From: Rozella allomycis CSF55
Taxonomy: Eukaryota
Length of the DNA: 25,706 bases
NCBI GenBank assembly: GCA_000442015.1
Contig: KE560428.1
Location: 62,001 to 87,706, forward strand
Direction of reading: 5' to 3'
Under the pieces are notes generated by a model that was given only the letters and a program-made list of their open reading frames with translations, did no database searches and had not been told where the DNA came from. Both the position numbers and the translations under genes were made by a program. Shown here piece after piece: positions 6,079 to 19,368 of the stretch; position 1 is the stretch's first letter, and each line of letters opens with the position of its first letter.

Positions 6079-8363
<2,285 letters not shown>

Positions 8364-8426
8364 AAAAAATTGAGGCTTGGTCGGCGAGCCGCGAGATAAG
8401 CTACAATAAGAAAAGAAATTGACGAT

Positions 8427-9821
8427 TTATTCTTGTTTAATATCCACTGACGTAATGGCTTCTATTCTTTCAAAAAGAGTAGGATGGCAATAATGATAAG
8501 TTACGTACCTAGATCAACGAAGATTGACTAAATTACCATCTGTCTGGATTCAAATTTGAAAGATTTTCTGAATGAATTTTAATCAACGCATTAACTAATT
8601 CAAGAGAGTATCCATGTTTAACAGCAAATGCGTCCGCTTCGTATTCATGTTTTCTTGACACAATGTTCATGGCGAAGTTTAGCATGTGATCTACCGGGGA
8701 GCTTACGTATTGAAAGAAAATAAAACCAAGAACAACAGGATATGTTTTTCCATAGAATCCAAACAAGTTGAATATGTATTCGTTAAGTATAAACTGAGAT
8801 AAGACGTAGAGATTTAAAAAGAATATTCCCTGTGAAATTACGATGCGTCTCATGGTATGACTTAATTTCCAATGTCCTAATTCATGTGCAACAACAGCAA
8901 CAACTTCATTAGTCTTCACTTGCTTTAGCAATGTGTCAAAGATGACAATTCGATAATTTTTGAATAGCCCAAAGAAGAAAGCATTGGAATGAGCAGATCT
9001 CTTACTCCCTAGGTTTTTTAATTTTGATTCAAATTACCATCCATTACAAATAAATTCGTTAAAGGAAACTCGACCTTCTTTGCCAAGGCAAAAATTTTTG
9101 ACCTTAATTCACCTTCTTCAATCGGAGTAAATTGATTGAATAATGGCATAATGAATGAAGGATAAACAAGAATCATGAAAAATTGAAAAACTACTAGAAA
9201 TATGAACAAATACCAGTAAAAGGAAGATCCGAAATAACGAACAATAGCGATTACGCATCCCAAAATTGGAACGCCAAATAAAGATACGAGCACGATCGTC
9301 TTAAATTGATCCATGAAATAAATCTTTAAAGTTTGCTTATTAAAGCCATGTTTTTCTTCCAAGTNTTTGCTTATTAAAGCCATGCTTTTCTTCCAAGTAA
9401 AATGTTTGTATCAAATTCCATGGCAGATCAATTGCCCAGTTAATGGCATAGAAAATTCCTATAAATACACAAGATACATAAATCTTTAATAACGAAAGTT
9501 AAAAAATACCTCATTGTATAGTAAGCTAAAATCATGGACTTTAGCTAAATTTTCTGAGACTTCCCACATCTTGACCAAACCATTACTTAAAAGCAATCCC
9601 AAAACAACTACAAATGAAAATAATCTGTACAACAACGAAAACTTGAGTTTGTCCGCATTGTATGCTCTAGACTTATCATAGTCGACCTGTGAGACCACGG
9701 ACTGAACTTTTGGAGGCATCACAGAACTCCTCAATCTTGAAAACTGCCTGATATCCAAATACGTTTCAAACGTGAATACCAATCCAATAAACGCTAAAAC
9801 TGTTGCGAACAGGCAGACCAT
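8427..9821 (-). CDS. STE24: CAAX prenyl protease 1 (Ste24/ZMPSTE24, peptidase M48); 3 short introns
   Basis: Motifs FETYLDIRQ, LEEKHGFNKQT, DGSKRSAHSNAFFFG, RIVIFDTL, zinc motif HELGHW, SRKHEYEADAFA and HYCHPTLFERI, plus multiple hydrophobic TM segments. A 33-bp N-flanked duplication at 9332-9398 interrupts the assembly. Confidence 0.96.
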
Positions 9822-9902
9822 TGCGTTATAAATTCCCGAATTTCGGTTTACCTTGAAATATAGAAATATGAAATAAATGGAAGAAAATCTTAAATATGTT
9901 TA

Positions 9903-11252
9903 TTAAATCGAATGTATTTTAAAATAACGAGGTAATTCCTCTGATTTCTCCCTACATTTCCTTTCTTTTACCTTTTGCATAAATTCTTTGAATATGCATT
10001 CAAATACTACTAAATAATTTAAATATTCATAGTTTTCATAGAAATGATCGCGTTTTTCAATGCTAAGTTGTGGACAGTAATGGAAGTAATCACGCACTGG
10101 AACAACACTTTCCATAAAGTCAGGTACATCATCCAAGTATTTAGTATAGTCGACGAAAATCTCTTTTTTGACCATGCTATTAAGATTTTTAACCACGAAT
10201 CTTTCAATTGAATTAATATCCAAATCGTATTCCCTGTAAAATTTTAACATGGCGCGGTAGCAATCCACTCTGTAGAAACAATATTCAAGTGTATACTGAA
10301 TTTCCCTTGTTGTCAATATTCCATCGCCCGTACTTTGTGTATCAGTATAAAAGGGCCATTTGTCTTCTTCAAATCCGTCAGCTTTTGGGGCGAGCTTGTA
10401 GATGTATTTGAAAAAATCTTTGATAATTTGATGTTGAAATTGTCTCAAATTTCTTATTTTGCCATTGTCAAAAATTTGATCAATCTTCTTGTGCCATACA
10501 ATAGGATAAATAACTTTAGATCTTGGCGAAACATGTTTTTCGTTATCTTTTGGATATATTATATGATTAGCTTTTACATCCATTGCCATTTTATGACATT
10601 GAGACCTAACTTTCAGGATCATCTCTTCTGAAATACCAATATCCAAAGAGTCTTTGTGGAAGTGGTTACAAATAGAAGATAAGTCCGACGAAGGGTTGTA
10701 TGGAAAACTCTTCAAATAGCTCTTTACTTCGTCAAGAGAATATGAATGAATAACAGAATCAGGTTTTAGATACTTTTCAGAGTAAAATTTTAAAGCAATG
10801 AAAGCTATTAGCATATTTTCAGTTAAGCTTGCTGGCGGCTTTAATAAAAAGTTACCGGTAACGTCTTTTCGCTCTAAAAAACGTGACACGGTAATCACAA
10901 CATTGTATTCTAGCGTTGTTTTAATCAATCTCTTATCGGTGCCCTCATCTGCTATTCTGCTTACATGATCAACAAAGTCTACTGCAAGATTTTGAACAAT
11001 TTCGACTGCATGCTCCCTTTCAGATGATGTAATTTCGTAATTTTCAATACGCTTTTTGACCAAGAAGCTTTTTAGGTTTTCAATAACGCTTTTATAGATA
11101 CCAAAAAGTTCAGTTAATCTAGTGGCGTTTGACGCCTGCCTCGATACATCAGATCTATAGGCCCTTAAAAACTCGTCTAGATTCGAATATTGATTTGCAG
11201 CGATAAATGGAGTCAATATCAGCAAGCACTGGAAGAAAAATACCAAGCGCAT
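9903..11252 (-). CDS. Orphan predicted secreted protein, paralog A (449 aa), intronless
   Basis: The ATG at 11252 starts MRLVFFFQCLLILTPFIAA, a signal-peptide-like sequence that aligns with the start of paralog B. The ORF track's upstream TTG extension is not shared. Full-length similarity to 11511-12878. Confidence 0.85.
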   Translation of the reverse strand: MRLVFFFQCLLILTPFIAANQYSNLDEFLRAYRSDVSRQASNATRLTELFGIYKSVIENLKSFLVKKRIENYEITSSEREHAVEIVQNLAVDFVDHVSRIADEGTDKRLIKTTLEYNVVITVSRFLERKDVTGNFLLKPPASLTENMLIAFIALKFYSEKYLKPDSVIHSYSLDEVKSYLKSFPYNPSSDLSSICNHFHKDSLDIGISEEMILKVRSQCHKMAMDVKANHIIYPKDNEKHVSPRSKVIYPIVWHKKIDQIFDNGKIRNLRQFQHQIIKDFFKYIYKLAPKADGFEEDKWPFYTDTQSTGDGILTTREIQYTLEYCFYRVDCYRAMLKFYREYDLDINSIERFVVKNLNSMVKKEIFVDYTKYLDDVPDFMESVVPVRDYFHYCPQLSIEKRDHFYENYEYLNYLVVFECIFKEFMQKVKERKCREKSEELPRYFKIHSI

Positions 11253-11510
11253 AGTAAATTTAGTAATCAGTGGCTGTTTTCGAAATCTGGTAAAAGAACC
11301 GTAGATCAGAGAGCCAAGTAACTGATGCAATGCTCTTTTCAAGAAGCATTATGTAAATTTTTAAATAAATTATTCTAAATATAACAAAAATTCTGACACG
11401 GGCGGGGGAATAATGGCATAAGGAACCACAGTTTAGGGTGAAGAAATCCCCTTTTTATCCCCCATTTCCAGATTTGTAAAATGTAGAGAGAAAATGAAAT
11501 GCTTTGTTTA

Positions 11511-12878
11511 TTAAGATGAAATTCCTGCAAGATAACGAGCAAAGTAGTCTGATTTTATTCTCTTCTCCTTCGCCTTTCTTTCTTTCACCTTTCGCATAAA
11601 TTTCTTAAATATGCATTCGAATACTGTTAAATAGTTTAAATATTCATATTTTTCATAACGGACATCGCGTTTCACTTCGATACTAAGTCGTGGACAGTAA
11701 CGGTAGTAGTCGCGCACAGGTTCAACATGAGACATAAACTGAGGCACATCCTCCAAGTATTTAAATCTGGCTCCCATAGAATAATCAATGAACATTTCCT
11801 TGTCAATTTTCTCCACTTTGTTAACCACGAATCTTTCAAGTGAATTAATATCCAAGTCGTATTCCTTATAAAATTCCAACATGGCGCGATAACAATCTAC
11901 TCTGTAGAAACAATATTCAAGAGTGTGTTGGATTTCCCTTGTTGTCAATATTCCATCTCCTCTACTATGTATGTCAGTATAAAAGGCCCATTTGTCTTCT
12001 TCAAATCCGTCGGCCTTTGGGGCAAGCTTATAGATGTATTTGAAAAAATCTTTGATGATTTGATGTTGAACTTTTCTCACAATTCTTGTTTTTCCATTGT
12101 CAAAAATTTGATCAATCTTTTTGCGCCATACAACAGGATAAATGACTTTAGATCCTTCCGGTAAGTTTTTATCATTATCATTTGGAAATATTACTGGATT
12201 CTCTTCTAGATCTTTTGCCAAGTCACGACATTGTGATCTTACCCTTCGTAATTGCTCATCTGGAATATCAATATCCAAAAACTCTTTGTGAAAGTGATTA
12301 CAAACAGTAGACAAGCTAGATGAAGGGTTGAATGGAATACTCTTCAAATAATTCTTCACATTATCAACATAATTTGAATACAACCCAGTTTCTCCCGCAT
12401 ACCTTTCAAGGTAAAATTTTAAAGACATGAAAGCTATTAGCATGTTGTCAATCAAGTTTGCTGGCGGTTTCAATAGAAAGTTATCGGTAACGTCTTGTCG
12501 ATTTACATAGCGGACCACAGCCGAGACAGCATTCGCTTCTAAAGTCGTTTTAACCAATACCTTATCGGTACCCTGATCTGCTATTCTGCTTACATGTTCA
12601 ACAAAATCTATAGCAAGATTTTGAACAACTTCGACTGCATGCTCCTTATGAAACGACAAAATTTCGTATCTTTCAATATGTTCTTTCACCATAAAGCGTT
12701 TTAGATTTTCAACAAGGCTTTGATAGATAGTGAACAGTTCCGATAATGTCGTAGCATTTGATGCCTCATTTGATACATCAGATCTATAAAACTTTAAAAG
12801 ATCTTGTAGATTCAAATATTGTGTTGCGGCAATAAATGAAGTGAAGATTAACAAAGATTGGAAAAATACCAGACGCAT
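11511..12878 (-). CDS. Orphan predicted secreted protein, paralog B (455 aa), intronless
   Basis: Starts with signal-peptide-like MRLVFFQSLLIFTSFIAA, has no later TM segment and is colinear with paralog A. Confidence 0.85.
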   Translation of the reverse strand: MRLVFFQSLLIFTSFIAATQYLNLQDLLKFYRSDVSNEASNATTLSELFTIYQSLVENLKRFMVKEHIERYEILSFHKEHAVEVVQNLAIDFVEHVSRIADQGTDKVLVKTTLEANAVSAVVRYVNRQDVTDNFLLKPPANLIDNMLIAFMSLKFYLERYAGETGLYSNYVDNVKNYLKSIPFNPSSSLSTVCNHFHKEFLDIDIPDEQLRRVRSQCRDLAKDLEENPVIFPNDNDKNLPEGSKVIYPVVWRKKIDQIFDNGKTRIVRKVQHQIIKDFFKYIYKLAPKADGFEEDKWAFYTDIHSRGDGILTTREIQHTLEYCFYRVDCYRAMLEFYKEYDLDINSLERFVVNKVEKIDKEMFIDYSMGARFKYLEDVPQFMSHVEPVRDYYRYCPRLSIEVKRDVRYEKYEYLNYLTVFECIFKKFMRKVKERKAKEKRIKSDYFARYLAGISS

Positions 12879-13136
12879 AGTTAATTTAGTAATCAGTGGC
12901 TGGGTCGAGCATGCTCATTGGCCAAGCCGATCTACAATTACCAAATAGAGAAAATGTCAGAAACATAAATTTAAGGCTAAAATGGGTCCCAATAATTGTC
13001 GGAGAAGCCAGAATGTTTGTCTAAATTCTAAAAATAACTACTGATCTATTTTTATAACGCTGGGAAAAACTTTGAAGGTCCATAAAAATTGTAAATTGAT
13101 TAAATAATGTACAATTTTCACACTGAGAACCATAAA

Positions 13137-15286
13137 TTAATCTAGATTTATTAAATGCCAGTTTCCTCCACAAATACAATTATTCTTAACAAAATCAATC
13201 CACGGGTTGGATGGTAACGTGTAATTGCAACACATATCACATTTCATTACGGCTTTCGATTCCCATATGGCTTCATGAGTAATAAAGTCATGAAAAACTT
13301 TTCCCTTGAAGTCTCTTTTACCATCAAAGTTTGTCTAGTAATAATGAGGCGTATTTGATTTACCCATGGAAAAGACATTAAGCAATCTTCAAAGAGAAAT
13401 TCTGGAAATTCTTTTCCTTCAATGAAAAATGAATTGAACTGCGATGTAATGGAATCAATGATATCTTGTGGCATCATTTGTTTTAAAGGTTTGTTTGCTG
13501 TGTATAAAACCTGAAATAAATGAATTTTGCAATCTTAAAACTGCTAATGAGAATGGTTACTGTTAAGAGTTAACAATGTGCCCACAAAGTTTCGTAGATG
13601 AAGTGGATGCCGCATTAGCACGGTTCTATAAGGTAAATATTCTTCAAGAATCTCGCAATCTTTTAGCTTGTGTTTTAAAAATGCACAAAATTGTAAGAGA
13701 CCAATAAATTTCTGTCTAAACTCTTCATTGCAAAAGGGCAAAATCTATTTTAACTTTGAATGGATTCTTACGAAAGGCAATATTTTGGGTTCTTTGTTGT
13801 TGATTCTTTTATTGCTGGCAATATTTTGAAAATAGAGGTTTAATAAAAACATATTTGAAATGTTCAAAACGTAAAATGCGATTGGTAACAGTTTGGGCAT
13901 AAACTCTAACAATGACCATCAGGAGAGGCATTTACCTTTTGATATGCAATTATCATTTATTTTGGTTGACAAGTCAGACTTTGTAATAAAGCAAATCAAA
14001 TCATGAATGTGAAACACTTGCAGCAATAGCATTGAATCTGTATTTTCACTGTACAAAGACTTTTGGTCCATTGATAGACAATACTGAATCCCAATAATCT
14101 CTGTATTGGTGAATCTATTTATCGCAGGATTACTTAACAATAATCTCAAGAATGAGCCATAGTTGACATGTCCTTGCTGAACGATGTGTTTAANCCAAAA
14201 GCTTCGGCAACTCATTATAGCGCAGATGAGTTGTTTATCAAGATTTTCTACTATTGGGTTCTGATAAACTTTTATTCCTCCTTCAGAATCTTCATAAAAG
14301 CTGCATATTGAAGCATTGTTTAAAGTTAAGCATGAATAAATTCTTTTGTCATCAAGTTTATCAAATGAATCTTCGTGAAATTCCAAAACAGGCTTTTGCA
14401 AATCGCGACTAGAATAACTTTTCGAATGTACTAATACTATGAAAAAACCAAATGTTTAAAACTAGAAAATGAAATCAAAATATACGGAAAAGAGAAATGT
14501 ACGTAATCTATTGAAGGATAACAAGGCATTTCCATTGTCTGATTGAACTTTAGTGATTTTAATGTAGAATCAAATTCACACAGACTCAAAGTGTATTCTC
14601 TGTTAAATAAACTGCATTCTCTTACTGTCATTATTCTTCAACAAAATTGAGATTAAATTATATTGAGCCTCCACTGAAACGATTTTGCCTTTAATCAACT
14701 TGTTATTCTCTGAATACAATGACAGAGTATTCTTTTGAATGACTAGATCAAAATTAACACGATCATCATTCTCGTATACAATAACAAAACAATTTTCTAT
14801 TAACTCCAGTAAATTCTTTTACTATTCATGGTGAAAATTCTTGCTTGTATAAATTGTTTTTCTAATTGCAAACTCTCAATTTCCCAAGAATCATCAATAT
14901 TCTGACCTCCCAAATAAATCTCACAATAATACTCCATAACTTTTACTGTTCCATTCCCACTAACAGCCGCAAAACACAGAGAATCCGTGGCAGCTACCTT
15001 TTTCTCAAACGAACCATCCCAAACCCACTATTCAATCAATCAACACAAAAATTACGCTAGTATTTTGTTTCAAAACAGTAACATCAACAATCTGGTCATT
15101 AAAATTCCGTTCAAATATTCTCTCCCCACTCTTCCCCTCAACAATAACCAGCTCTGTGTCATTCCATCCAGCGACAAAGTCCCTATTACATGTCGCATTC
15201 TTGAATCCAAAATTTTCAACATGTCCACTCGCAACATCATAAATTTTAAAAGGCAGGAATATTTTAGAGGAAAGGAGCCATGGCAT
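13137..15286 (-). CDS. MED16: Divergent Mediator tail subunit Med16/Sin4-like protein; about 8 short introns, N gap at 14194
   Basis: The spliced frame has a beta-strand-rich N half (propeller-like) and a helical middle. The C-terminus HDFITHEAIWESKAVMKCDMCCNYT..PWIDFVKNNCICGGNW matches the Med16 terminal D..CxxC..W..CxCGGxW signature. Stop TAA at 13137-13139. Confidence 0.72.
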
Positions 15287-15289
15287 TTA

Positions 15290-15300
15290 CGAAAATTCGG
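15290..15300. promoter_or_regulatory. Quasi-palindromic CGAAAATTCGG element in the 20-bp MED16/SLA1 divergent gap
   Basis: Related CG-A3-5-TT-CG elements sit 12-16 nt upstream of three other start codons (198-208, 9836-9846, 22929-22939). Function is inferred only. Confidence 0.4.
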
Positions 15301-15306
15301 TGCTGC

Positions 15307-18300
15307 ATGATCTTTATTGACGTTGCTAGAGCTTTGTACGATTACGCATCAGATTACAGTGAGGAGCTTTCGTTCAAGCAGGATGATGTGTTGTTTATCA
15401 CATCGAAAGAAGATCCCGACTGGTACTATGCGTATTTGGACGGAGCGGAGGGGTTTGTGCCGTTTAACTATATTGAAGTGGTATTATTGTTGGTGGAAAT
15501 GTATGTAGTTGCAGCCGTCGTCTGATGCGCGGTGTTTGTTTGACTATTGTGAAGCGAATAATGAAGAGCTGAGTTTTAGAGAGGGAGATTTGGTGACGAT
15601 ATATGATACGAGGGATGATAATTGGTGGATTGCGTGTTTGAAGGGCAGATTTGGATTTGTGCCGGCGAATTATGTTGAAATTCAGAATGGAGGGTTTAGC
15701 GAGCAAGTGATTGCTTCATTTGATTCGCCTATGAATGATGGGCAGTTTGATCAAGTGATTGAGCCGGTAATTTTATGGAATGAATTTGATAGGTTGAGAA
15801 TCAGTTAAAGATACAAGAGGGGAATATTGAAACACAAATTCAAGCTGAAGAAATTGTATTTTTAAAAATCATAGTAAGAGATAAAGGAATTAGCAATAGT
15901 TTAATGAGAAGAAGAAAAAGAAAAAGGGAGAAATTTGTTTTCAGGGAAAGGAGAATGAACATTTTGTCGTTTGATGTGAACAAGGACGTTGTAGCTTTAA
16001 AGTTAAAAGAAGAAGTGATAGAGTTTACGTTGGTGACACAAAGTGACATTGAAATATTAAAAAATAGATTAAGAAATGTTACTGGAGAAAAAGAAGAGAA
16101 AGTGAAAAAAGTTTTAGCGAATAAGATTGGAGATAAGGAGAGTGAAGAGAAAATAGAAGAAATTAGAAACAAAGAATATAAAAACGAAGAAGTTAAGAAT
16201 AAAAATGAAGTATTCAGCTCTAATGTAGTTACTGAGAATGTTAAAACAATTCAATCAACACCAAAAATTGTGTTTGCTAAAGTTGCATACGAGGCGAAGA
16301 GAAAGGAAGAAATTTCAATAAAGGAGAATGAAAATTTTATTGTAATTGATGATTCTGATTCTGAATGGTGGAAAGTGAAGGCAGTTTCTAAAAAGGGTCG
16401 TGAAGGGTTCGTTCCTTCATCTTGTCTTGAATTGAAACAAAAATTGATAATTCAAAAAGAAAACAAATTAGAAATAATTCAAGAAAACAAAGTTGATAAA
16501 ATTGAAAAGGTTGAGAGAATTGAACAATTGGAAAAGATTGAAAAGATTGTAAACCCTGCGATTCCTAAAAGATCAGAAATTCAATCACCTGAAAAGATTG
16601 TAATCCCTGCGATTCCTAAAAGATCAGAAATTCAATCGCCAATTTCTAATTTTGCAAAGGCTGATAAATTNCGCCAATTTCTAATGTAAAAGACTTAAAA
16701 GATGCAAAGGCTGATAAATTGACAATTAAAACTGATTTTGCACCACCACCTTTACCACCGAGATCCAATTCTTCTTCGCAAAACGTTTCGCCAGTTGCAC
16801 CACCATTACCACAAAGAGGTTCAAGTCCAATTGTTAAAGAAGAAATAAAGCCAGCTGTAGAAGTATTTGCACCACCACTTCCACAAAGAGTCTTTCAAGA
16901 CACTAGAGTTTTAAAGGAAGAAAAAGAAAGTGTTATTTCAACAACAAATAGAAATAATTTGAAGCAAAAGAAGAGTCTTCCTGTATTGCCAAGTAGACCA
17001 AAAGTAGATTCAACGATGAGATCAAATCAAGAAGTTAAACCTATTGAGACACAAAAACCTTCAGAATTTAAATCTGAACCAATAATACCAAAACCACCAA
17101 GAAATGTTCCCATTAACAATCCGAATACTAGAAATATAGACTCAAATTCAAACTTAAACACCAATTCAAATTCAAACTTAAACTCCAATAAAGATTCAAC
17201 ACCATCGTTGATAATACCCCCAAGAAAATCATCAGCGTCTAAACCGCCATCATCACCAACAAGAAGAACGCTTCCACAGAGACCAACGGAACAAGAAGTG
17301 TTAAAGCCACGACCATCCAATATTAGAATATGGAAAGATAAATCAGAAACATTTAAAGTTGAAGCTGAATATTTGGGCTTGTCTGACAATAAAGTTGTCT
17401 TGTTTAAGACTAATGGAGTTAAAATTGCTGTTCCAATAGAAAAATTGTCTGTAGAAGATATTAAATACGTTGAATCTTTAACTGGAAAGAATTTCAATCA
17501 AACAAATTCAATTGAGCTTTTAACGCCAAAGAAATTAGATTCAGACATTAAAAGTGAGAAGAATGAGAAGAAGGCGAAGCAAATGAGTGAGAATAATATG
17601 AGTGAAATGAGTGAGAAAAAGCAAATGATTGAAATGAGTGAGAAGAACAAAATTAGTGACTTTAATTTAAATGAGAATAAACTTAATCAATTTAATTTGA
17701 ATGAAAGGAAACAAATAGTTTCAAGTCAAACAAACCAAATAGAGTCCAATGAACAAAAACAAATGGAGTTTTGGATGAAATTCTTTTCTTCAGCTGGAAT
17801 TTCAAATTTTGATTCAAAACAATACGCTGAAGAATGTTTAAAAAGAAAATTTGATGAAAAAACAATTTCTACATTTTCAAGAGAATTATTAAAAGAATTA
17901 AATATTGGTGAGGGGGACATTCAAAGAATCAAAAAAATATTACCAGAAAATCATTCTTTAAATGTTAAATCAATTGAAAGTTTAGATTCGTCATTTTCTA
18001 AAACTCAAGTAAATTAAAACTTTTATCTTATTCAGATTTCTCCTTTGTCTTCTAGAAGAAGTAGCAGACTAAGTAATCTTTTTTATATTCTCTTATAAAG
18101 ATAATCAAAGCACAACACCTCCTCTACCAACAGCTGAGAATATGATCAACGCTAATAGGAAATCATCCTATCAATCTTCAAATCAACAATCCTCAAATGT
18201 TAATCAATTTCAATTCAATTCTCTCCCTTCAAACTTTAAAAATGCTACGTTTTCTGCCACCAATGTTCAAAATACAACTAATTCTATTCCAACAAATGTA

Positions 18301-19368
18301 CCATCTTCTATTGCAACAAATGTCCCATTAGCAAATTTACCTCGCTCATCATCGTCTCAATTTAATTTACCTTTAAACAACAATTCAAATTCATTTCAAA
18401 ATATTCCAAACCAATTCTCTTCGTCAAATATTATAAAACCAAATGCGTCTCAGCCATTTAACACTTTGAATGGTTCAACGAATAGTATCCCTTCAACACT
18501 ATCATCGAATATACCTTCAAATATGCCTCCTACAATGCCTGCAAATATGCCTTCAAACATTCCTTTAAATAACATGCCCGCAAATATGTCTACTAATAAT
18601 ATGCCCATCCTCAATAACTCTGCATATTTTAACAATAATTCTTTACAGTCAAATGCTGCTAACAATAATTCTTTTCAAATGAACAATCCAATGAATTCAT
18701 CTATGAACTCTTTACCAATGACTAATGCTAATAGATTTAATAACAATGCNCATTCCTTCAAATATGCCCCCTACAATGTCTACGAATATGCCTTCAAACA
18801 TTCCTTTAAATAACATGCCTGCAAATATGTCTACTAATAATATGCCCATCCTCAATAACTCTGCATATTTTAACAATAATTCTTTACAGTCAAATATTAA
18901 TAATTCTTTTCAAATGAATAATTCAATGAATTCTTCTATGAACTCTTTACCAATGACTAACGCTAATAGATTTAATAACAATGCTATTCCATTGAATAAT
19001 AATGTTGGATTTAATAATATACCTTTGAATAACACACAATTACCCAATTATAATTCAATGGTAAATTCTATGCCAATCATGAACAATTCTTCAATGCAAA
19101 TTAACAATAATCCTATTCCAAATAGCCAAAGTAACAGAAATACTTTTAATCCTTCCATTATTTACTACAACGCTCAAGGCAACATGCAACCATTACAACC
19201 ACAGATTCAAGGAATTCAACCATTCGGATTACGTAACAAATCTTTCCTAATTTAATCATAGAATCAAATTCTAATCCAAACAATGACAAATATTCAGCAT
19301 TAAGGAATCCAGATTCCCATTCAAGCGTCTTTAACAATTCAAGTCAATTCAAAAACAATTTTCAATAA
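15307..19368 (+). CDS. SLA1: Sla1-like endocytic adaptor: SH3-SH3, PH-like segment, SH3, Pro-rich region, SHD1, SAM-like SHD2, Asn/Met/Pro-rich tail
   Basis: Three SH3 domains (ARALYDY..EELSF..DWY..GFVPFNYI; LFDY..EELSF..NWW..GFVPANYV; AYEA..EEISI..SEWW..GFVPSSCL). SHD1 reads RIWKDKSETFKVEAEYLGLSDNKVVLFKTNGVKIAVPIEKLSVEDIKYVE and SHD2 reads FWMKFFSSAGI..LKELNIGEGDIQRI. Introns at 15481-15508, 15767-15792, 18009-18035, 18073-18100 and 19233-19261. Exon structure near 15860-15990 is ambiguous. N-flanked duplications at 16671 and 18750. Confidence 0.92.
16540..16641 (+). repeat. 51-bp coding tandem repeat, 2 copies (EKIVxPAIPKRSEIQSP)
   Basis: Units start at 16540 and 16591, are in frame and have no N between them. 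Each carries a PxxPxR SH3-ligand-type motif. Confidence 0.85.
18510..18983 (+). repeat. About 240-bp near-identical duplication around the N at 18750 in the Sla1 low-complexity tail
   Basis: IPSNMPPTMPANMPSNIPLNNMPANMSTNN...ANRFNNNA appears twice, with substitutions and a 6-nt indel. It could be two alleles or a true tandem repeat. Confidence 0.75.

Follow-up and report, generated by a model that had tools for sequence, protein, structure and literature searches.

Microsporidia possess large, lineage-specific families of "host-exposed" proteins with signal peptides, as outlined by Reinke et al. (2017, PMC5423893), whose title presents them as rapidly evolving. Here we describe two adjacent paralogous genes, copy A and copy B, in a 25,706-nt stretch of the genome of Rozella allomycis CSF55 (contig KE560428.1; hereafter the window), and we tentatively favour the reading that they encode a Rozella-specific pair of exported, predicted all-alpha proteins acting at or beyond the host-parasite boundary. 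The pair resembles the families outlined for microsporidia in coming from an obligate intracellular parasite of the Rozella-microsporidia lineage, in having an N-terminal export signal (predicted here), in lacking known domains and in consisting of lineage-restricted paralogs. It differs from them in comprising two copies where those families are large, in evolving under purifying selection (ratio of nonsynonymous to synonymous divergence, dN/dS or omega, 0.35) where that paper's title announces rapid evolution, and in being known from sequence alone, with no similarity to microsporidian proteins in a phmmer scan of representatives.

Another point of comparison is a nuclear-targeted effector of Rhizophagus irregularis, which, as presented in PMC8048545, combines a signal peptide with a nuclear localization signal (NLS). 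The Rozella pair shares with it a signal-peptide-like N-terminus and a Lys/Arg-rich stretch (11 K/R in 20 residues in copy B), but copy A has only a weak basic patch and there is no sequence relationship between the two systems. Small cysteine-rich fungal effectors are defined by a mature protein of fewer than about 300 residues and a high Cys content. The Rozella proteins recall this class by their signal-peptide-like start, their even-numbered conserved Cys, their lack of a known domain and their tandem duplication, but with about 430 mature residues and 1.4% Cys they are far larger and poorer in Cys; on the grounds of size and Cys content we did not assign the pair to it.

Results

Copies A and B are real, tandemly duplicated genes

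According to the open reading frame (ORF) listing and its translation, copy A (positions 9903..11252 of the window, minus strand) is an uninterrupted coding sequence of 449 codons plus stop, and copy B (11511..12878, minus strand) is one of 455 codons plus stop. This agrees with the original prediction, made from the letters of the window, of two intron-free paralogs of about 450 residues in the same orientation. BLASTP aligned the two proteins with 302 of 453 positions identical (67%) and 12 gap positions, and nucleotide identity over the aligned codons is 78%. The duplicated unit, which repeats at a spacing of about 1.62 kb, includes some 6 nt beyond the stop codon at one end and 24 nt before the start codon at the other; outside the duplicated unit the flanks are unalignable, save for the 24 nt before each ATG and a decamer at the stop codon, TTAATAAACA. 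Since the copies stand in tandem on a single contig and differ by 22% in their DNA, the possibility that they are alleles was ruled out. Comparison of the N-terminal with the C-terminal half of the protein did not reveal an internal repeat (best E 2.0), and no third copy was detected by tblastn within the window (best E 0.15).

Selection was assessed as dN/dS by the Nei-Gojobori method, comparing copy A with copy B, and in 21 sliding windows of 40 codons. The pair-wide ratio was 0.345 (dS 0.59, dN 0.20), and omega stayed below 1 in all 21 sliding windows, with a range of 0.07-0.71. Because dN/dS shows purifying selection, pseudogenes and chance ORFs are effectively excluded, and we conclude that copies A and B are real, tandemly duplicated protein-coding genes. 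Both also look native: their GC content at third codon positions (GC3) is 0.33 in each copy, within the 0.21-0.47 found across nine neighbouring coding pieces, and their composition bears no foreign sign.

In databases, copy B is 100% identical over 393 residues to a protein (P0003) whose model begins at Met63, and copy A is identical at 426 of 428 residues to P0004, which is listed at NCBI as [quoted passage not shown]. Through this latter match the source fits the endoparasitic lifestyle that had been considered for it.

A core of 110 residues is constrained at the protein level

Divergence between the copies is unevenly distributed. Alignment columns 245-354 are identical at 95 of 110 positions, compared with 66% over the whole alignment, and none of 5000 column shuffles reached 95 identities (maximum 92). 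This block corresponds to residues 243-352 of copy B (11823..12152, minus strand) and to residues 245-354 of copy A (10191..10520, minus strand). The longest unbroken identical stretch between the copies is 27 residues. A block of about 110 residues more conserved than its flanks had been pointed out from the sequence, with sliding-window dN/dS between the paralogs proposed as a check; the shuffles support the former, and the latter returned a constrained core with omega of about 0.07 at dS 0.7-0.9.

In particular, omega was 0.078 in codons 281-320 (dS 0.69) and 0.071 in codons 301-340 (dS 0.91). The sliding windows across B 261-340 gave omega 0.07-0.17 with dS 0.36-0.9, and those flanking the core gave 0.15-0.71, with the loosest at B 141-180 and 221-260. 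As omega falls to about 0.07 while dS is 0.69-0.91, conservation of the core reflects constraint on the protein and not recent gene conversion. Given the low dS of 0.21 in codons 241-280, a short gene-conversion tract may nevertheless lie at the start of the core.

The core is not a recognisable EF-hand

The consensus EF-hand loop has Asp at position 1, Asp, Asn or Ser at positions 3 and 5, Gly at position 6, a hydrophobic residue at position 8 and Glu or Asp at position 12. Within the core, a 12-residue loop ends at a conserved Glu (copy B 304-315, HSRGDGILTTRE; copy A 306-317, QSTGDGILTTRE); its positions 5, 6, 8 and 12 fit this consensus, whereas His/Gln and Arg/Thr occupy positions 1 and 3. 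These two positions vary between the copies, and the remainder of the loop is invariant. The resemblance to EF-hand domains thus consists of D-G-hydrophobic-x-x-x-x-E followed by a predicted helix, within a predicted all-helical protein; the differences are the residues at positions 1 and 3, the lack of a second, paired loop that we could recognise and the lack of a Pfam match. EF-hand models in Pfam, sought at E values up to 10 with the whole proteins and with the core alone, gave no match, in a search where HMMER filters discard most weak likenesses. The motif DGILTTRE had been read as EF-hand-like, but with non-consensus residues at ligand positions 1 and 3 and no Pfam EF-hand model we rejected the core as an EF-hand. 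The core may still hold a non-canonical metal or ligand site.

Both proteins carry putative export features

Signal peptides were called by hand rules, taking into account charge, the hydrophobic run and the residues at -3 and -1. In both proteins Arg2 is followed by a hydrophobic run of 16-17 residues (L3-A18 in copy B, L3-A19 in copy A) with Ile and Ala at -3 and -1, and the Ile-Ala-Ala that precedes the proposed cut is what the (-3,-1) rule expects of a cleavable signal peptide. The signal-peptide-like N-terminus of copy B, at its hydrophobic maximum, spans residues 1-18 (MRLVFFQSLLIFTSFIAA, followed by TQ; 12825..12878, minus strand), the rule allowing a cut after residue 18 or 19; in copy A it spans residues 1-19 (MRLVFFFQCLLILTPFIAA, followed by NQ; 11196..11252, minus strand), with a single candidate cut after residue 19. 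In Kyte-Doolittle windows of 19 residues, copy A exceeds 1.6 at residues 1-3 only (maximum 1.96 at residue 1) and copy B reaches at most 1.59, again at residue 1. No further membrane segment was detected, as no such window past residue 25 exceeds 1.2 in either copy. The start that had been described as signal-peptide-like is therefore the sole strongly hydrophobic stretch and conforms to these hand rules for signal-peptide cleavage.

We argue that translation begins at Met1, because omega is 0.22 over residues 1-40, hence a coding stretch, because in each copy no in-frame ATG lies between an upstream stop and Met1, and because a conserved 24-nt element directly abuts the Met1 codon. Repeat analysis and upstream alignment placed this element (CAGCCACTGATTACTAAATT.ACT) at 12879..12902 before the ATG of copy B and at 11253..11276 before that of copy A, both on the minus strand. 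The two elements are identical at 23 of 24 positions, an agreement with a binomial probability of about 6e-5 assuming the identity level of synonymous sites, and the remaining upstream DNA is beyond alignment. The 17-nt centre of the element has just two occurrences in the window. The element includes AAATTT, described in microsporidia as a start-proximal signal; we use this as a lead only.

At the other end, neither protein has an H/KDEL ending (the C-termini are ...KIHSI and ...AGISS). With neither this ending nor a later transmembrane segment, both copies have the features of soluble secreted proteins, and their default fate would therefore be export if the signal works. Each copy has a single N-X-S/T sequon, an aligned NAT at residue 42 in copy A and 41 in copy B. 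Six Cys are also aligned (B 193, 217, 323, 329, 395 and 422, equivalent to A 195, 219, 325, 331, 393 and 419) and lie in the motifs CNHFHK, SQC, YCFYRVDC, YCP and FEC. Both the shared sequon and the six equivalent Cys had been noticed in the original prediction and were recovered here. Copy A has two extra Cys, one near the N-terminus within the hydrophobic stretch (C9) and one in the tail (C433); mature lengths are 431 and 437 residues, and the Cys number 6 in copy B and 8 in copy A, of which 7 are in the mature protein.

A Lys/Arg-rich end had been proposed for both copies. This holds for copy B, in which the basic C-terminal tail reaches 11 K/R per 20 residues (windows starting from 423-425) and is centred on KVKERK (11574..11591, minus strand), but the tail of copy A, around its own KVKERK (9957..9974, minus strand), is weaker, with 8 K/R per 20 residues beside several acidic residues; KVKERK alone is common to both tails. 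Because of this weakness in copy A, a conserved NLS or membrane patch in the tail is doubtful.

Searches for relatives found none beyond the pair

An exhaustive phmmer scan of 1,835,955,588 representative proteins yielded one protein at E<=0.001, belonging to the query's own cluster. In a word-indexed search of 5.8 billion proteins the two copies were the sole hits, whether the query was a single sequence (2 of 4443 candidates) or, at E<=10, a two-sequence profile (2 of 6591 candidates). Nothing above noise was obtained from Pfam, NCBIfam, PDB sequences and profiles and the ESM Atlas (whole protein and core), and none of the pattern matches in metagenome, viral and prokaryotic-genome contigs (596, 72 and 403, respectively) was confirmed by tblastn. 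That the proteins have no recognisable family, as first suggested, is in keeping with all of these sequence searches, and the pair has been found so far only in Rozella allomycis. The copy count comes from the protein searches and the window, and degenerate or unannotated copies may exist elsewhere in the Rozella genome.

Several weak matches were treated as chance. These were, for copy A alone, the Pfam models CTD9 (E 0.018), T3S_SPI-1_N0 (0.032) and TnsA_C (0.17); for the core of copy B alone, DUF3907 (E 0.055) and Colicin_immun (0.1); and, in the PDB, complex I B13, CCR1 and glutamine cyclotransferase (E 0.11-0.87). Residues 265-304 of copy A (about 10341-10460) also matched the phage family phrog_2037, whose function is unknown (E 6.8e-4, 20.8 bits, 40 residues); we treated this in the same way, because copy B, near-identical in that stretch, gave no such match.

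AlphaFold2, run with the two-sequence alignment, gave predicted local distance difference test scores (pLDDT) averaging 37.6 over full-length copy B and 44.3 over residues 240-455, neither model being usable, and fold searches with these low-pLDDT models returned noise only. Helices are predicted throughout both weak models; each protein, of about 50 kDa, would by this prediction be mainly alpha-helical.

No RNA runs carrying the stretch were recovered in a run search. A metatranscriptome run with the same species label shared almost no sequence words with the stretch and placed 0 contigs on 7000-14500; as the housekeeping neighbours were likewise without contigs, this run is uninformative on expression. 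Full-text literature searches found nothing on this protein pair.

Stop-proximal element and the copy A gene model

Past the coding sequence, the decamer TTAATAAACA, which includes the TAA stop and AATAAA, is the sole sequence common to both copies. Downstream alignment placed the overlap of stop codon and AATAAA hexamer at 11505..11513 for copy B and at 9897..9905 for copy A, both on the minus strand. This arrangement suggests that AATAAA may serve as a poly(A) signal, with very short 3' untranslated regions in a compact genome. The ATG of the neighbouring Ste24-type protease (first ORF 9486-9821) sits 81 nt beyond the stop of copy A.

The database protein P0004, which comes from another assembly of the same strain, fuses copy A after ...FMQKV to sequence just upstream of this ATG (region 9822-9975, minus strand), drops the last 21 codons of copy A and continues into the Ste24-type protein (MVCLFATV...). 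Eight bases, AAGGTAAA, are present at both junctions, so that formally these could border a GT...AG intron of about 120 nt. Since the tail left out of this model is conserved between the copies (omega 0.26), the fusion is taken to be a gene-calling artefact.

The genomic setting is housekeeping

The pair lies in a housekeeping setting, with Pfam matches in 15 of 27 neighbouring stop-to-stop ORFs. Downstream, at lower coordinates, are polyubiquitin, an AAA ATPase and a Ste24-type M48 CAAX protease spread over at least 3 ORFs; upstream, at higher coordinates, are a Sla1-like SH3/SHD1 protein, a split DEAD-box helicase, a NUDIX hydrolase and others. The neighbours had been described as intron-rich. 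This is borne out by the genes of the Ste24-type M48 protease, AAA ATPase and DEAD helicase, in each of which the Pfam domain is divided among several ORFs. The NUDIX and Sla1-like genes, for their part, have long uninterrupted ORFs. As the window holds such ORFs elsewhere (NUDIX 243 aa, Sla1-like 298 and 449 aa, AAA 389 aa), the intron-free state of the pair is notable but not unique.

Directly upstream of copy B, at about 12950-15300 on the minus strand, many short ORFs form an apparent multi-exon gene. Its largest pieces tested, 13247-13534 and 13919-14455, were without a Pfam match, and its final piece (13137-13334) ends in a Cys-rich sequence (CDMCC...CICGG) that could be a zinc-binding tail. 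Downstream of the Sla1-like ORFs, an Asn/Ser/Pro/Met-rich low-complexity stretch (18073-19255, plus strand) is probably the tail of the same protein.

The window contains six single N positions (4089, 9365, 14194, 16671, 18750 and 23021). The N at 9365 sits between 33-nt copies (9332-9364 and 9366-9398) that are 97% identical, and the ORFs flanking the N at 18750 share a repeated peptide stretch (18722-18813 and the stretch just after 18750). These repeats look like unmerged overlaps at assembly joins, and gene models that span such joins (Ste24-type protease, Sla1-like) may carry small artificial duplications.

Discussion

Under the reading that we tentatively favour, a cleavable N-terminal signal peptide would take each protein into the endoplasmic reticulum (ER), being cut after Ala18 in copy B and Ala19 in copy A. 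In the ER the protein would probably be N-glycosylated at one site and form as many as three disulfides among its six conserved Cys and, having neither a later membrane segment nor an H/KDEL ending, it would leave the cell by the default secretory route. Rozella lives inside Allomyces as a wall-less protoplast. Because the parasite is naked in the host cytoplasm, an exported soluble protein would meet the host-parasite interface or the host cytoplasm itself, hence the proposed action at or beyond that boundary; it is from this parasitic lifestyle that we infer a putative effector role. The strongly constrained 110-residue core would do the work of the protein, most probably as a binding surface, and would be tuned by the helical N-terminal half, which is looser, and by the variable basic tail. 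A bolder version would make the pair a new fold family of Rozella host-manipulation proteins, in which the invariant core (QHQIIKDFFKYIYKLAPKADGFEEDKW ... GDGILTTRE ... YCFYRVDC) uses a degenerate EF-hand-like loop to bind a metal ion or a conserved target in the host, the proteins being exported into the Allomyces cytoplasm and the tail of copy B directing it to the host nucleus or a membrane; this we regard as a long shot.

Several observations weigh against a role at the host boundary. The protein searches and the window yielded only two copies, not an expanded family; about 430 mature residues with 1.4% Cys are unlike the classical small Cys-rich effectors; the call of signal cleavage rests on a hand rule; and the database model P0003, beginning at Met63, is without the hydrophobic start. 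Moreover, omega values of 0.35 overall and 0.07 in the core are the signature of a conserved job, unlike the fast diversification frequent in host-facing proteins. These same values, together with the two copies, fit about equally well with secretory-pathway proteins that serve the parasite itself, be it as lumenal, vacuolar or surface proteins or in the zoospore cyst, penetration tube or resting-spore wall, for which the targeting features would be identical; they also suit a structural or housekeeping-like function of the parasite better than an arms-race effector. In our estimation such a parasite-intrinsic function is nevertheless somewhat less likely than action at the host boundary, as the proteins show no retention signal, membrane anchor or hydrophobic C-terminal end of the glycosylphosphatidylinositol type, and no relative was found in other organisms, related parasites included, among the proteins searched.

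Should the hydrophobic start be a signal anchor or a buried helix, the proteins would work in the cytoplasm or nucleus, with the tail as an NLS and the Cys and His of CNHFHK binding metal. The 16-residue hydrophobic run is indeed at the long end for signal peptides, P0003 leaves it out, the tail of copy B has its 11 K/R in 20 residues, and the conserved C-x-H-x-H, along with other conserved His and Cys, could bind metal. This scenario is nonetheless improbable, given an N-terminal region under purifying selection as coding sequence from the first ATG, small residues at -1 and -3 directly after the hydrophobic run and a basic tail that is poorly conserved (8 K/R in 20 with acidic residues in copy A). 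We also give little credence to a highly diverged member of a known family, of EF-hand type or another helical domain, lying beyond the reach of sequence methods: D-G-I-L-T-T-R-E fits EF-hand loop positions 5-12, the protein is predicted to be helical throughout, and Rozella and its relatives evolve fast, but loop positions 1 and 3 are H/Q and R/T, the best Pfam match (E 0.018) was to an unrelated model and in one copy, NCBIfam and the ESM Atlas gave nothing, and the best PDB match had an E of 0.11. A recent acquisition from a virus, a bacterium, the host or a mobile element would explain why the coding sequences are intron-free beside the split Ste24, AAA ATPase and DEAD helicase genes, yet it seems highly improbable: scans of viral, prokaryotic-genome and metagenome contigs and of 1.84 billion protein representatives turned up no donor-like sequence, GC3 matches that of the neighbours, no flanking terminal repeats were seen beyond the duplication, the PHROG match concerns copy A only, and other genes of the window have long uninterrupted ORFs.

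Export of the pair to the host-parasite boundary thus stays our tentative choice. Rozella is the best-studied member of the lineage linking fungi and microsporidia, and our literature searches turned up no Rozella protein shown to act on its host. Orphan genes with signal peptides are common in parasites, and the pair is of this ordinary kind, with no unusual mechanism indicated; its value is as an experimental lead. As a short, intron-free candidate with an export-like signal and a sharply bounded core, it offers a practical start for secretion-trap and localisation work.

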